Assembly: GCF_056712565.1 (NCBI RefSeq)
Contig: NZ_CM160072.1
Reading direction: 5' to 3' (one strand)
Length of the DNA: 64,000 nt
Below, piece after piece: positions 41,585 through 50,205 of the stretch (position 1 is the first letter of the stretch; each line of letters starts with the position of its first letter). Below the pieces are notes generated by a model, which was given only the letters and a program-made list of their open reading frames with translations, was not told where the DNA came from and did no database searches. The translations under genes and the position numbers were made by a program.

Positions 41585-41907
41585 ACTTTCAGGCCCCTCT
41601 CATGTAACCAGTGGGCTGCACGCAGCCTGGCGTTTTCCTTACCGGCAAGCAGTGAGCGGATAATCCCGACCGCCTCGCTGTCGTCGTCCTTCACCGCGGT
41701 ATGAAGAGTGATACCCCGGGCCACGCCACGCTTTATCGTGATGACGCCTTTTTTCTCCAGTGCTCGAAGATGCTCCACCGCTGCATTCACTGAACGGTAT
41801 CCCAGCATGGTTGCCACCTCCTGATTGGTTGGCGGGAAGCCACGTTCTTTCTGATAAGAAATCAGCATATCCAGCACCTGCTGCTGGCATTGAGTTAACG
41901 TCGTCAT
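41581..41907 (-). CDS. LexA-like DNA-binding domain protein
   Basis: 108 aa; LTQCQQQVLDMLISYQKERGFPPTNQEVATMLGYRSVNAAVEHLRALEKKGVI resembles the LexA N-terminal winged helix. Confidence 0.5.
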   Translation of the reverse strand: MTTLTQCQQQVLDMLISYQKERGFPPTNQEVATMLGYRSVNAAVEHLRALEKKGVITIKRGVARGITLHTAVKDDDSEAVGIIRSLLAGKENARLRAAHWLHERGLKV

Positions 41908-42557
41908 GCCGCCATCTCCCTGAGCAGTTTTTCCGCCTGCTGGCGAACCTGCGCCAGAAACGCCTCACCACATGCCTCAAGTTCATCGCGCCCGATGTAG
42001 CTGATTGCCGGTCCCTTCCAGGTCTTGTCAAAAACAGCAATAGCACCAGCGAAGAAAGCTCCTGTCGGCACCTGCTTCTCGTCTTTCGGGATAAACCAGA
42101 CAGGCAGTTCAAAACCAATACGCCCGCGAATAAAAGCAATATGATCTGCATCTTCCGGCCACCACACTTCGCTGGTGGCAGCTTTGATCAGGAAAACATA
42201 GCGCCCGCCTTTATCACGCATGGCACTGGCATGCTTCATGATGTAACGCATGCCGGTGATGTATTGCCCCTCATGCTGACTGGCGCGGCTGTATGGGGGA
42301 TTACCAAAGGCAGCACCTTTAAGCTCCGCAAGACGTTCTGACCAGTCATGCGCCAGCGCATTGTCTTCCGCCGTGTAATACGCGGCACATTTGGCGTTAC
42401 CACCGTCGGTGAACAGATCCAGAACAAACGGGCCAAACAGGGTGTTAATTCCCCAGAAAATGTTGTCCGGCGTGCGCCACTGATCGCCCACTTCCTTCAG
42501 TTCATGGGCTGGTTTGTTCCGCAGCTCCACCAGCACCTGGCAATATTTATTACTCAT
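41904..42557 (-). CDS. Phage N-6-adenine DNA methyltransferase (Dam-like)
   Basis: Start at MSNKYCQ; contains NPPY catalytic motif (GNPPYSRAS). Confidence 0.7.
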   Translation of the reverse strand: MSNKYCQVLVELRNKPAHELKEVGDQWRTPDNIFWGINTLFGPFVLDLFTDGGNAKCAAYYTAEDNALAHDWSERLAELKGAAFGNPPYSRASQHEGQYITGMRYIMKHASAMRDKGGRYVFLIKAATSEVWWPEDADHIAFIRGRIGFELPVWFIPKDEKQVPTGAFFAGAIAVFDKTWKGPAISYIGRDELEACGEAFLAQVRQQAEKLLREMAA

Positions 42558-43051
42558 TAAGCCCCCACGTAATTCCCTGACAGATACCACTCTTCACCCG
42601 ATGCAGCGCGCTTGCTGCTTTTCCGTAAGCACCGCTCACGACGCGCCAGAAAATTGTTTCGTTCTGGCTGGGAGTGGCTTTCACGGAATGCCGCCATCCA
42701 CACGGTTGCAGCACGACGGTATAAACCCCTGGACTCCAGTTCTTCAGCCTGGCGGGTCAGGCACAAAATCACCCGTGGATCGTTAGTGCCGACATAGAAA
42801 TTGCGCACAGGTCTGGTTTCTCGAACTGGTTGTGGTTCCGGTTCCTGCGCTCTCTCAGTCAGGCGCGGGAAATGTCTGCGTGTATCTCCTTCACAACGGT
42901 GAGCCACACGCCCACTCTGACGTAACTTGCTTGCTGACTGCAGAACGCGCTGTCGTGAGTAACCTGCAAAAGCATCCGCAATGTCACCGGAAGTACACCC
43001 CGGATGGGCTTCAATGAATTTCTGAACGTCATTTAACAGACTCATGATCAC
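42557..43051 (-). CDS. Putative PerC/ANR-like transcriptional regulator
   Basis: 164 aa; AEELESRGLYRRAATVWMAAF resembles the PerC-family signature as recalled; uncertain. Confidence 0.4.
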   Translation of the reverse strand: MIMSLLNDVQKFIEAHPGCTSGDIADAFAGYSRQRVLQSASKLRQSGRVAHRCEGDTRRHFPRLTERAQEPEPQPVRETRPVRNFYVGTNDPRVILCLTRQAEELESRGLYRRAATVWMAAFRESHSQPERNNFLARRERCLRKSSKRAASGEEWYLSGNYVGA

Positions 43052-43989
43052 CCCCTGAATCCTGCCGGGATCTGGCTGTAGTCCACGTTGTCGTAACTGG
43101 CTTTGAAGTACGGGTCCTCGCGTTTTTCGGTGTACGTACTTACGGACGGCGATAAGCGCAGGGAAAGCTCATCCCATTTTTCCCGCAGCTTCGACGGGCT
43201 GAGCACGTTACGGCACCAGAACGGATCGCGGCTGACGCGGCTGTACATCTCGCAGATTTGTTTGTGAGTACGACCATCCTGCACACACATCAGGCGAATT
43301 TCGTTTGCCCAGGCTGTCCAGTTCGGTTCTTTGGGACGAACCACCTCGCCGTCACATTCGGCAGCCTGCTCGTACAGGGCGATGATTTTTTTCCAGAGCC
43401 ACTGTGCGCAGGTCAAATCATCCTGCGTTCCCCACTGGCGCTTTTTAGGGCTGAATACAACAGCATCAGGATGGCGAGTTAAAAACTCCTGTTCAGCCGT
43501 CTGCGTGTCCGGTTGCGAAGCGTCCGGACGAGAAGTTTTTTTATCTGACGGATCATGTTTTGATTTTACTGACGGATCCCCGCCAGATTCTGACGGGTGA
43601 AAACCCGCTTTTTTGCCAGATTTCGACGCATCAAATTTTGACGGGGCAGATTTTGATGCGTCAGATTTTGACGGGTCAGAATCTGACAGTTGAGAAAATG
43701 CCGCTGCCTGAAGCTTCGCAACGTTAAGCTGATAAACATTCGACGCATTGCGGTTACCCTGGCGACGCGCCTTACGCGTTAACCAGCCTTCTGCTTCCAG
43801 CCGTGCGATAGCCGTTCTGACGGTACTCATCCCCGCGCCAATCTGGCGGGCAATGGTTTCAATTGATGGCCAGCACACACCTTCGTCATTACTGAAATCA
43901 GCCAGGCGGGCCATAATTGCCACGCTGGATAACTTCATGCCTGACGCAGCGCAACCATCCCATACATAGCCGGTTAATTTAGTGCTCAT
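43048..43989 (-). CDS. Replication initiation protein (O-like; N-terminal HTH, internal iteron-encoded repeat region)
   Basis: 313 aa; N-terminal winged-helix-like region; middle low-complexity SKSDASKSAPSKFDASKSGKK encoded by tandem DNA repeats. Confidence 0.6.
   Translation of the reverse strand: MSTKLTGYVWDGCAASGMKLSSVAIMARLADFSNDEGVCWPSIETIARQIGAGMSTVRTAIARLEAEGWLTRKARRQGNRNASNVYQLNVAKLQAAAFSQLSDSDPSKSDASKSAPSKFDASKSGKKAGFHPSESGGDPSVKSKHDPSDKKTSRPDASQPDTQTAEQEFLTRHPDAVVFSPKKRQWGTQDDLTCAQWLWKKIIALYEQAAECDGEVVRPKEPNWTAWANEIRLMCVQDGRTHKQICEMYSRVSRDPFWCRNVLSPSKLREKWDELSLRLSPSVSTYTEKREDPYFKASYDNVDYSQIPAGFRG
43541..43695. repeat. Iteron-like tandem repeats (~8 copies of ~15 bp, GAtTtTGACGgntCA) inside the replication gene; candidate origin
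   Basis: ttatctgacggatca / gattttactgacgga / gattctgacgggtga / gatttcgacgcatca / aattttgacggggca / gattttgatgcgtca / gattttgacgggtca / gaatctgacagttga. Confidence 0.55.
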
Positions 43990-43998
43990 GACCGACCT

Positions 43999-44337
43999 CT
44001 ATTTCCCTGAATTTACGACGAAACTGTTCGAGCGGACTGAAGCATTCATGCTCATAGCCTTCGCGGAGGTAGATAACCCGTTGTGTTTCCGGTTCCCAAC
44101 GAATGACTCTGACGGGCACTCCGTAGTGATCTTTGAACCAGCGGTTAACTTGTCGCAAAGGACTGTCTCCTTCTGCCGGTTGAAATCACCCACAGCCCAC
44201 TCAGCAAAGCTGTGGGTTACAATTTCCCTGTCACCTGGTACATTTACTGCATAGCAATACTCCACCTTCGCTTTTCCACCCGGTACAGGAAGCGCAATCA
44301 GTTGCGAGCGACGGTAGTGTGTTGTTAAACTGTTCAT
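43999..44337 (-). CDS. Hypothetical early protein
   Basis: 112-aa ORF whose ATG overlaps the upstream stop (ATGA), filling the gap before the replication gene. Confidence 0.4.
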
Positions 44338-48330: not shown

Positions 48331-48457
48331 TTTCATTACTGCAAATGCCCCTGCGGGGGCATTTATGGAAACGTAATTGACTCAATAATCGCCGGATGGT
48401 GAGGGCTTTCTTTTACCAGAATTCAGCGCGGTGCAGCGCATATACGTGGAGAACAAA

Positions 48458-48982
48458 ATGTCATTTATTAAAACTTTTTCCGGGAAGCATTTTTATTATG
48501 ACAGGATAAATAAAGACGACATCGTTATTAACGATATCGCGGTTTCTCTTTCAAATATCTGTCGCTTTGCAGGACATCTTTCACATTTCTACAGCGTCGC
48601 CCAACATGCGGTGCTTTGCAGCCAACTGGTACCGCAGGAATTTGCTTTTGAAGCGTTAATGCATGATGCAACAGAAGCGTATTGCCAGGACATCCCGGCG
48701 CCACTGAAACGCCTTCTTCCTGACTATAAACGGATGGAAGAAAAAATAGACGCCGTAATCCGTGAGAAATACGGGTTACCCCCGGTTATGAGTACGCCCG
48801 TGAAATATGCCGATCTCATCATGCTGGCAACCGAACGCCGCGATCTCGGGCTTGATGATGGCTCTTTCTGGCCCGTACTGGAAGGTATCCCGGCAACAGA
48901 GATGTTCAAAGTTATTCCACTGTCGCCAGGCCATACCTATGGGATGTTTATGGAACGCTTTAAAGAGTTAACTGAGTCGTAA
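48458..48982 (+). CDS. YfdR-like HD-domain phosphohydrolase (5'-deoxynucleotidase-like)
   Basis: HxxxxxxH...HD-like motifs (FAGHLSHFYSVAQHAV ... MHDATEAY). Confidence 0.6.
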   Translation: MSFIKTFSGKHFYYDRINKDDIVINDIAVSLSNICRFAGHLSHFYSVAQHAVLCSQLVPQEFAFEALMHDATEAYCQDIPAPLKRLLPDYKRMEEKIDAVIREKYGLPPVMSTPVKYADLIMLATERRDLGLDDGSFWPVLEGIPATEMFKVIPLSPGHTYGMFMERFKELTES

Positions 48983-49090
48983 AAATCAGCACGTACGAAT
49001 TCAAACTCTGCCATAAAAGAACATATAAGTAATTTATTAACATATAGATATAGGTTATATTACAAATTGAAAAATTATTGGAGAGCAACA

Positions 49091-49957
49091 ATGAATCAAA
49101 ATCCATTCTCATTCTATGACTTTCTTGGATATTTAATACCAGGTGGTTTTTTTATCCTATTAATGTATTTCTGTGGTTTGACATTCGATCTAGATATTGT
49201 TATTGACTTAAGTGAATTGCTCAGAGGTCAAAGTCAAATCTTTGGCATTTTGAACTACGCTTCAATAGTTATTATATCTTATATAGCTGGACATTTTATT
49301 TCTATCACGTCAGCATTTTTTATCGAAAAATACATGAATAAAGAATTAGGATATCCTTCCAAATATCTATTTAAAAAATTGATAGATACCTCAGAAAGCA
49401 TTTGTAGCCCATCATGCGATGAGAGAAGCGCTGATAAAAAAACAAAAATAAAGAATCGCATAATCAAATGCGTATTATGTCCAATAATACTATGGGATTT
49501 TATAACACAAAAACTATGTTATTCTCAATCTCTACCATTTCATTTAGCTAATACAACATGGTTAATGATCAAAGAAGGTTATGAGAAAAAGTTCATAACA
49601 AATCGCCAATTATTACAAGATAAAAACGGACTTGATGATGATCTCTTCAGATTGGCATATCATTATGTTTATGAGTTTTCAAAACAACATCAAACAAAAA
49701 TTCAAAACTATGTTGCATTATATGGTTTTTGCAGAAACATATGTTTAATCTTTATAATTTCATTTTGGGTATCAGTTCCAACCTTTATTTATCGATTATG
49801 TACTCATAGTGATTATCTTTATAGTTTACTTTCAATAATGCTTAGCTTTTTCTTCGTCTATGTTTTCTATGTTGGTTTTGTTAAATTTTATAGAAGATAT
49901 ACTTTAGAAGTATTAATGGCATTTGCTGTACTTCAAAGTAACGACACTATTCGTTAA
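49091..49957 (+). CDS. AT-rich multi-TM membrane protein of unknown function, next to xis; candidate exclusion/abortive-infection gene
   Basis: 288 aa from MNQNPFSFYD with GGAGAG RBS; hydrophobic helices at both ends; markedly AT-rich versus flanks. Confidence 0.5.
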   Translation: MNQNPFSFYDFLGYLIPGGFFILLMYFCGLTFDLDIVIDLSELLRGQSQIFGILNYASIVIISYIAGHFISITSAFFIEKYMNKELGYPSKYLFKKLIDTSESICSPSCDERSADKKTKIKNRIIKCVLCPIILWDFITQKLCYSQSLPFHLANTTWLMIKEGYEKKFITNRQLLQDKNGLDDDLFRLAYHYVYEFSKQHQTKIQNYVALYGFCRNICLIFIISFWVSVPTFIYRLCTHSDYLYSLLSIMLSFFFVYVFYVGFVKFYRRYTLEVLMAFAVLQSNDTIR

Positions 49958-49998
49958 TAATGTTGCTCCCGTGTGCAGACGGGATAATGGAGAAACGT

Positions 49999-50205
49999 AT
50001 GCTGAACCTCGATTGTGTTCCTATCTCAACTTATTGCAAAGAAACTGGCGAAACTCCTGAAGCAATAAACAAACGTGTACAGCGCGGTGTTTGGCGTGAA
50101 GGTGTTCAGGTTTTAAAGGTTGAAGGCGTTAAGGAGAGGTGGATTGATCTTAGTGAGGTTGCAAAATGGGCCAGACAAAACTGCTCAAACTACCGCGCGG
50201 CGTAA
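49999..50205 (+). CDS. Excisionase (Xis-like DNA-binding protein)
   Basis: Small basic protein immediately upstream of and overlapping the integrase; start at MLNLDC with GGAG RBS. Confidence 0.5.
   Translation: MLNLDCVPISTYCKETGETPEAINKRVQRGVWREGVQVLKVEGVKERWIDLSEVAKWARQNCSNYRAA

Follow-up and report, generated by a model that had tools for sequence, protein, structure and literature searches.

The closest described counterparts of the element discussed here are the origins of the ori-lambda group, in which the initiator gene itself carries the repeats, within the stretch that codes for the interdomain linker (gene O of lambda and the Stx phages; gene 18 of P22 and phage L).(PMC7466680, PMC8022706) These repeats are dyad symmetric and have A+T-rich DNA on their promoter-distal side; they are iterons of ~19 bp in four to six spaced copies, 20-24 bp apart, their number varies among relatives, lengthening the protein, and they are exchanged together with the N-terminal domain as one mosaic module. 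The inference of phage origins from in-gene repeats is routine, with lambda, P22 and phage L as precedents;(PMC8022706) PMC7466680 serves as an architectural reference only, because its "P27" is a lambda-type replicon and not phiP27. For the phage group considered here an origin is not yet annotated. A candidate was found in a window of 64,000 nucleotides from contig NZ_CM160072.1 (assembly GCF_056712565.1), in the replication initiator gene of an SfIV/SfII-like prophage carried by E. coli ATCC 11775: by analogy with ori-lambda, the array of short repeats in the linker-coding part of this gene is probably the cis-acting replication origin of the prophage.

The initiator gene (43048-43989, minus strand; 942 bp and 313 amino acids in the list of open reading frames, ORFs) matches a prophage gene on the E. 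coli ATCC 11775 chromosome with 100% identity. At 98-99% identity, it corresponds to the rep genes of SfIV and SfII, which are viable Shigella phages, and to those of several E. coli phages, and a search of 5,426 complete E. coli genomes showed near-full-length copies in ~1,575 of them. Regarding its product, the original prediction spoke of an O-like protein, a term that holds for function, since the PHROG match is phrog_391, "replication initiation O-like" (E 6e-135), but not for family: Pfam finds HTH_36 (PF13730) at residues 23-70, with E 4e-11 and 42.9 bits against a gathering cutoff of 25, and Phage_rep_O, the lambda O family, is absent from the matches at E<=0.01, which are otherwise to GntR, HTH_29, PaaX, DnaD_N, RP-C and MarR. 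"O-like" is then a label given by PHROGs only, and the protein, judged from its matches, is not of the lambda O family, unlike the initiator of lambda itself. The N-terminal DNA-binding domain (residues 1-98; 43696-43989, minus strand), in which the HTH_36, GntR, MarR and DnaD_N matches are found, is a winged-helix domain and the presumed reader of the iterons. The C-terminal domain (residues ~160-292; 43114-43510, minus strand) is all-alpha, matches no Pfam family and is restricted to enterobacterial prophages; its model is a helical bundle with no convincing structural neighbour.

The array is built of five head-to-tail 15-bp units (cores at 43615-43687), one isolated strong copy and two degenerate copies, so that six good and two degenerate repeats occupy 43535-43687, between the regions coding for the DNA-binding and the C-terminal domains; on the plus strand, the starts of the copies are spaced by 24, 21, 33, 15, 15, 15 and 15 bp. 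Tandem Repeats Finder (TRF) reported a 15-bp array of 4.3 copies at 43617-43680, scored with period 30 too, and this was the only tandem repeat with a score of at least 50 in the window. Pattern searches gave results far above chance: the 15-mer CAGATTTTGACGGGT had six matches inside the array with up to three mismatches, against 1.7 expected for the whole window, and the dyad 13-mer GTCARAATCTGAC had ten window matches with up to two mismatches, nine of them in the array, against 2.6 expected, a count of ten being reached in 0 of 100 shuffles. All eight copies share one reading frame and encode the D-x-S-K-S-like peptides of the linker (residues ~100-155). The original prediction had placed eight tandem repeats of ~15 bp at 43541-43695, with the consensus GAtTtTGACGgntCA and coding for a Ser/Lys/Asp linker; its coordinates, consensus (which matches the plus-strand unit) and coding context proved correct, because TRF, the pattern searches and the in-frame copies agree, and the number of eight stands as well, but only five copies are in tandem, one being isolated at 33 bp and two being degenerate, with spacings of 21 and 24 bp.

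In gene sense, the first iteron is GTCAGAATCTGAC (43675-43687, gene position 303), a perfect 13-bp palindrome with no mismatch on the plus strand and one on the minus strand; iterons 2 to 5 follow at 15-bp spacing, and they are GTCAAAATCTGAC (43660-43672), ATCAAAATCTGCC (43645-43657), GTCAAAATTTGAT (43630-43642) and GTCGAAATCTGGC (43615-43627). The isolated iteron 6, CCCGTCAGAATCTGGCGG (43582-43594), is 33 bp from iteron 5, after a conserved A-tract/T-tract spacer; beyond it, the candidate unwinding region (43535-43578) is rich in A+T and contains two GATC sites as well as the two degenerate half-iterons GATCCGTCAGTAAAATCA and GATCCGTCAGATAAAAAAAC. Each unit carries a dyad of 12-13 bp, GTCA-RAATC-TGAC, and the copies other than GTCAGAATCTGAC are one or two mismatches away from the palindrome. 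Conservation centres on a core, TCA-RAW-TCT-GAC, after which three bases vary, and the preceding G completes the palindrome GTCAGAATCTGAC; near-identical genes differ in this triplet, which is translated as P, A, T or Q. Computation leaves the register of the dyad ambiguous, since the tandem block can equally be read as dyads of the form TGAC-NN(N)-(G)TCA.

The same architecture is found in 11 relatives, which have, in gene sense, three to eight tandem units, the A-tract/T-tract spacer, the strong copy and an A+T-rich stretch with two degenerate copies, each starting with GATC; the copy corresponding to iteron 6 is the best conserved among them, being present in all 11 at a distance of 33 or 48 bp from the tandem units. 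Genes with an identical N-domain have 4, 5, 6 or 7 tandem units, which gives proteins of 308, 313, 318 and 323/325 amino acids (this set comes from a scan of viral contigs with the N-domain, whose 80 loci are nearly all 100% identical and therefore unusable for divergence tests), and Klebsiella relatives have three to seven; the changes are always of whole units, often of 30 bp, and the ORF is kept. In K-12-type genomes, the gene beside yfdN in the cryptic prophage CPS-53/KpLE1 (yfdO) matches only 43048-43756: it is without the 5' end that codes for the helix-turn-helix (HTH), yet the whole repeat array is retained, and this locus would be the remnant of an origin, left next to an initiator that has lost its head.

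As for the level at which the repeats are maintained, relatives of the N-domain from annotated phage genomes, with 100%, 88%, 81%, 62% and 59% protein identity, were aligned, and codon identity was compared at sites where the amino acid is conserved. Among 28 pairs of eight diverged relatives it ranged from 0.25 to 0.58 in the N-domain and from 0.56 to 0.92 in the linker, and the linker exceeded the N-domain in 25 of the 28 pairs (one-sided Fisher p<0.05, p-values that are indicative only). The pooled values are 0.396 for the N-domain and 0.772 for the linker, where codon usage predicts 0.34 in both; thus, synonymous sites are almost saturated in the well-conserved N-domain and held in the poorly conserved linker, which speaks for iterons at the level of DNA rather than for coding repeats. 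In the window, TCA and TCT account for 15 of the 17 Ser codons of the linker, compared with 24% elsewhere in these genes, and conservation in the linker is lower for the amino acids than for the DNA core. Finally, phiP27 and Stx2_KH16-043 have a zero-mismatch core TCAGAATCTG (TTTGACCCTTCAGAATCTGG) in frame 2, 32 bp after an in-frame copy, which reads LTLQNL (core LQNL) instead of DPSDSG; because of this perfect out-of-frame copy, an explanation at the level of the peptide is insufficient. On these comparisons, the repeats are almost certainly constrained as DNA.

The array also follows the N-domain in recombination. A mosaic junction at 43511-43544 (minus strand; it codes for ...KKTSRPDASQP...) separates the N-domain and putative origin module from an exchangeable C-terminal domain: by megablast, Citrobacter phage phiNP shares only 43511-43988, that is the N-domain and the array, with 83% identity, and mEp460_4F5 shares only 43048-43544, the C-terminal domain, with 96% identity. 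phiNP, Flotzy, YeP1 and Kp4866-6 combine the window-type N-domain and array with a different C-domain, Phg_2220_C, and the two travel together in Klebsiella and Yersinia relatives as well. Conversely, in mEp460_4F5 the same C-domain is joined to an N-domain of a different kind, and the array differs too: it consists of five copies of CATCGGGTCAAAATG, whose spacings of 23, 24 and 46 bp are not multiples of three and put the copies in mixed frames. Initiators of the SfV orf39, mEp460 and Min27/24B types are comparable to that of the window in the HTH_36 fold family of their N-termini and in the position of their in-gene palindromic arrays, and differ in the iterons, which are GTGAATCTCCTGCAC in SfV, CATCGGGTCAAAATG in mEp460 and GGGGCAGGAGCTGCCC in Min27, spaced by 21-24 bp. 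Directly after the HTH domain, SfV orf39 has about five copies of its motif, Min27 has three, and Klebsiella ST13-OXA48phi12.5 has four copies of TATGCCATCTGATGGCA; SI5 too has its own palindromic array just after this domain, and every relative examined, whatever its N-domain, has an in-gene array in the same place. Co-inheritance of array sequence and N-domain is what a protein-DNA specificity pair would be expected to show, and the same covariation logic has been used for the in-gene iterons of lambda, P22 and phage L.(PMC8022706)

The DNA on the promoter-distal side of the array includes the least stable 40-mer of the gene (43531-43570), with a ΔG of -46.2 against a regional mean of -54.4 (standard deviation 4.7), which is 1.7 standard deviations below the regional mean stability; likewise, the lowest 40-bp GC content within 42800-44200 falls in the A+T-rich end of the array. 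Two GATC sites are located there, 24 bp apart (43551-43554 and 43575-43578). They arise because Asp is coded by GAT before CCN in that part, and by GAC in the tandem units; 10 of 11 relatives retain a pair or a triplet of them. In most of these phages, the second gene downstream codes for a Dam-family methylase (41904-42590, minus strand, in the window), and the GATC pair together with the Dam gene is a hint that the origin may be controlled by methylation or in a SeqA-type manner.

Taken together, the array is probably the origin of this SfIV/SfII-like prophage and the repeats are most likely the binding sites of its initiator, a putative role assigned by comparison with ori-lambda. The original prediction had drawn the analogy with the lambda arrangement of an origin within gene O, and the analogy is supported, at the level of sequence, because the repeats are constrained as DNA, by synonymous sites, the out-of-frame copy, the dyads, the co-segregation with the N-domain and the unstable promoter-distal DNA; binding and origin function are predictions only. 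Compared with ori-lambda, the window units are of 15 bp and head to tail rather than ~19 bp and 20-24 bp apart, the layout is five tandem, one isolated and two degenerate copies rather than four to six spaced ones, and the A+T-rich region is weaker. Iteron plasmids (pSC101, F, R6K and P1, with Rep_3/RepA proteins) offer a further analogy, with direct repeats, a winged-helix initiator, A+T-rich DNA and use of the host DnaB-DnaC; in these, however, the iterons are outside the rep gene, have 17-22 bp with a phasing of ~22 bp and usually are beside DnaA boxes, whereas the window repeats are in the gene, with no DnaA boxes nearby, and the Pfam scan gave no Rep_3 match for the initiator.

If the comparison with lambda O and ori-lambda is carried further, the N-terminal domain would, as dimers, occupy the five overlapping sites in tandem and also the isolated sixth one, and the resulting nucleoprotein complex would distort the DNA and open the adjoining 40-50 A+T-rich base pairs (43531-43578). 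The C-terminal domain, with the DnaT-like tail described below, might then recruit the host DnaB-DnaC, or the restart primosome, for helicase loading, and transcription of the early-right operon through the gene would probably assist, as in lambda.

Several points weigh against an origin at this place. The period of 15 bp corresponds to 1.4 helical turns, whereas lambda-type iterons and the other arrays of the relatives are spaced by 20-24 bp, and 13-bp sites next to each other would almost touch and would lie on different faces of the helix. The A+T-rich stretch is modest, with a GC content of 0.375 and only the 94th percentile of instability for the early region. As for the codon comparison, the Fisher p-values overstate significance, because the relatives are not phylogenetically independent, so that the size of the effect carries the argument; in addition, the window copies are all in frame, and the frame-independence argument rests on the relatives. 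No binding, footprinting or replication assay for this initiator family was found in the literature, nor were an origin or iterons found in the literature on SfV, SfIV, SfI and yfdO (the SfV genome paper being outside its coverage), and no examined sequence record annotates an origin.

The alternative that survives best accepts a DNA element and denies that it is the origin: the repeats would be autoregulatory sites of the initiator, acting by handcuffing or as a transcription roadblock, or sites for another phage or host protein, and the true origin would be elsewhere in the early region. Constraint at the level of DNA does not by itself identify a function, plasmid iterons serve in control too, a 15-bp period is atypical of origin iterons and the A+T-rich flank is only moderately unstable. 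However, the window has no second repeat array, DnaA boxes were found neither near the array nor clustered anywhere in the prophage, and all relatives place such an array at the same point regardless of the N-domain; moreover, the interdomain position, the orientation to A+T-rich DNA and the co-inheritance with the N-domain match the mapped lambdoid origins.(PMC8022706, PMC7466680) A DNA element with a function other than the origin is therefore considered unlikely.

A second alternative is that the repeats are coding repeats only, born by slippage and kept for a flexible linker of Ser, Lys, Asp and Pro, with no function as DNA. It would account for the single frame and the D-x-S-K-S-like pentapeptides of the eight window copies, for the variation by whole units, as in slippage-prone coding repeats, and for a linker of low complexity that is probably disordered; it does not explain why synonymous sites of the linker are conserved at about twice the level predicted from codon usage when those of the N-domain are near saturation, why phiP27-type relatives retain the motif out of frame, why the DNA core is palindromic in its units and better conserved than the amino acids, or why the copies of arrays that accompany other N-domains are spread over several frames. 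Synonymous sites and reading frame, as two tests, largely refute this explanation, which is left as very improbable; the same two tests offer a way to separate a coding repeat from a cis element by sequence alone. A constraint on the mRNA, by which structure or codon pattern would slow translation between the domains or regulate the downstream PerC gene, is the least probable of all: it too predicts synonymous constraint and could make use of the rare Ser codons TCA and TCT that dominate the linker, but the dyad hairpins would have only 4-6 bp with loops of 1-5 nt, and the motif is wholly different among relatives that share the downstream C-domain and PerC gene, so that a protein-DNA specificity pair fits better than a shared RNA function.

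With the array as the probable origin, the window provides a testable segment (about 43531-43690) for the replicon type of SfIV, SfII and many related prophages, and the question follows of how the helicase would be loaded. The original prediction had noted no P/DnaC-like loader gene downstream, and this is confirmed: neither the annotation of the prophage nor scans of the genes around the initiator against Pfam and PHROG revealed a P, DnaC-like or helicase gene, and no helicase or loader is among the PerC/yfdN, Dam methylase, LexA-like, RusA, KilA-N, DUF968 and Q genes downstream of the initiator. The window thus differs from lambda, being without P, DnaC-like or DnaB genes and having an initiator with a DnaT-like tail; SfIV and SfII, whose rep genes are 98-99% identical, are nevertheless viable phages. 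Such loader-less modules have reportedly been classified by Weigel and Seitz in 2006.

The tail consists of residues 293-313 (43051-43113, minus strand; ...DNVDYSQIPAGFRG) and resembles residues 159-179 of the host DnaT, or primosomal protein I, which ends in ...RDVNTVSEPDSQIPPGFRG; in close relatives of the C-domain, the corresponding end is ...RCVNHISEPDTEIPPGFRG. By BLASTP, eight of nine residues are identical to DnaT 171-179 (the DnaT sequence was verified against PDB 9zbt), and hhalign of the family alignment A1 against DnaT gave a probability of 94% and E 1e-7 over 21 columns; the top PDB sequence matches of the family profile are DnaT chains, although phmmer with the single initiator sequence found no DnaT chain in PDB. 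The tail fits the conserved C-terminal pattern of DnaT, ...SEPDxxIPPGFRG (side form ...IPxGFRG), and its presence is probably the reason for the "primosomal protein I" labels in several phage records. An identification of the initiator with DnaT is ruled out, because in hhalign only the last 21 residues align, with no detectable similarity to the N-terminal oligomerisation domain or to the three-helix, single-stranded-DNA-binding C-terminal domain of DnaT; in addition, DnaT is a restart factor, whereas the phage protein is predicted to be an initiator with sequence-specific binding to double-stranded DNA.

The tail is found at the end of initiators with at least four different C-domains, and tblastn with the DnaT tail retrieved replication-protein C-termini in ~50 enterobacterial phage records, the bearers including Rac YdaU, the Gifsy-2 O homologue, SfV orf39 and SPN1S; in the loci compared, DnaT-like tail proteins are encoded at L098 3001-3819, L099 1228-2016, L100 1583-2560 and L101 1787-2602. 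In a small sample of relatives, the tail occurs with no loader in the window, phiNP, three Klebsiella phages, Flotzy, Kp4866-6, mEp460_4F5, SfV and SPN1S, and with a DnaC-like loader in Rac (YdaU-YdaV), Gifsy-2 and the 75/02 Stx phage. It is absent from YeP1, which has no recognisable loader, from phiP27, which has a DnaC-like loader and its own DnaB too, from Klebsiella ST13-OXA48phi12.5, which has a lambda P neighbour, and from EKP1, Min27 and SI5, where a primase-helicase (toprim) gene is the neighbour; no tail was found together with lambda P or a phage helicase, whether of the DnaB or the toprim type. Unlike the window protein, the Min27 and SI5 initiators are tail-less and followed by a toprim/helicase gene, whereas SfV and mEp460_4F5 have the 3' end of the gene and the tail in common with it. 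A strict rule that a tail means no loader is ruled out by the Rac, Gifsy-2 and 75/02 Stx cases, where the tail stands beside DnaC-like genes.

A tail in a loader-less prophage suggests recruitment of the host DnaB-DnaC, a lead rather than a result. Going by its sequence, it could be a helicase-recruitment device that couples the initiator to a DnaC-type loading route, an idea put forward tentatively; equally speculative is a portable docking motif, shared by many initiators of enterobacterial temperate phages on at least four unrelated C-domains, that would address the host DnaB-DnaC, the PriA/PriB restart primosome or a DnaC-like protein of the phage. If true, a docking tail would let "solo" initiators dispense with a loader gene, and the phages bearing it would point to a role of the DnaT tail in helicase recruitment. 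How DnaT recruits DnaB/DnaC is stated to be unresolved;(PMC13377028) a function of DnaT residues 154-179 is not described in the DnaT literature found, and a literature search for the tail motif string returned nothing relevant. A loader-less replicon with a DnaT-like tail would be a natural system for DnaB-DnaC recruitment without lambda P.

The early-right operon in which the initiator is placed is lambdoid, with an S24 repressor (ymfK) divergent from it, and has the order Cro-like (ymfT), CII-like (ymfL), DUF4222, initiator, PerC/yfdN, Dam methylase, LexA-like, RusA, KilA-N, DUF968 and Q. The stop codon of the initiator overlaps the start of yfdN, of the PerC family (ATGA, 43048-43051), which suggests translational coupling. 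In this region, a stretch of 76 bp over the tail-coding end and the yfdN junction is 98-100% identical in many otherwise different rep genes, being common to SfV, mEp460, cdtI and several Stx2 phages, and it marks a second mosaic boundary at the 3' end of the initiator gene. Directly upstream of the initiator, 43979-44337 (minus strand) contains two overlapping ORFs in different frames: one codes for a DUF4222 protein of 59 amino acids (Pfam E 9e-19) and is annotated by RefSeq, the other has 112 amino acids, matches phrog_1170 over its full length and is annotated in the SfIV and mEp460_4F5 records; both may be real, or DUF4222 may be joined by a frameshift to the long ORF's 5' half.

An island of very low GC content (40-bp windows of 12-25% GC) is found at ~48400-50000, between yfdR and the integrase; it includes a hypothetical gene of 288 amino acids, the DNA of lowest stability in the early region falls within it, and it looks like a foreign moron insertion. 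Among the relatives, the toprim-type "P" gene downstream of the Min27 initiator (L089 3324-5210) has matches to Hint and LAGLIDADG homing-endonuclease families, which suggests that this primase/helicase gene may contain an intein.

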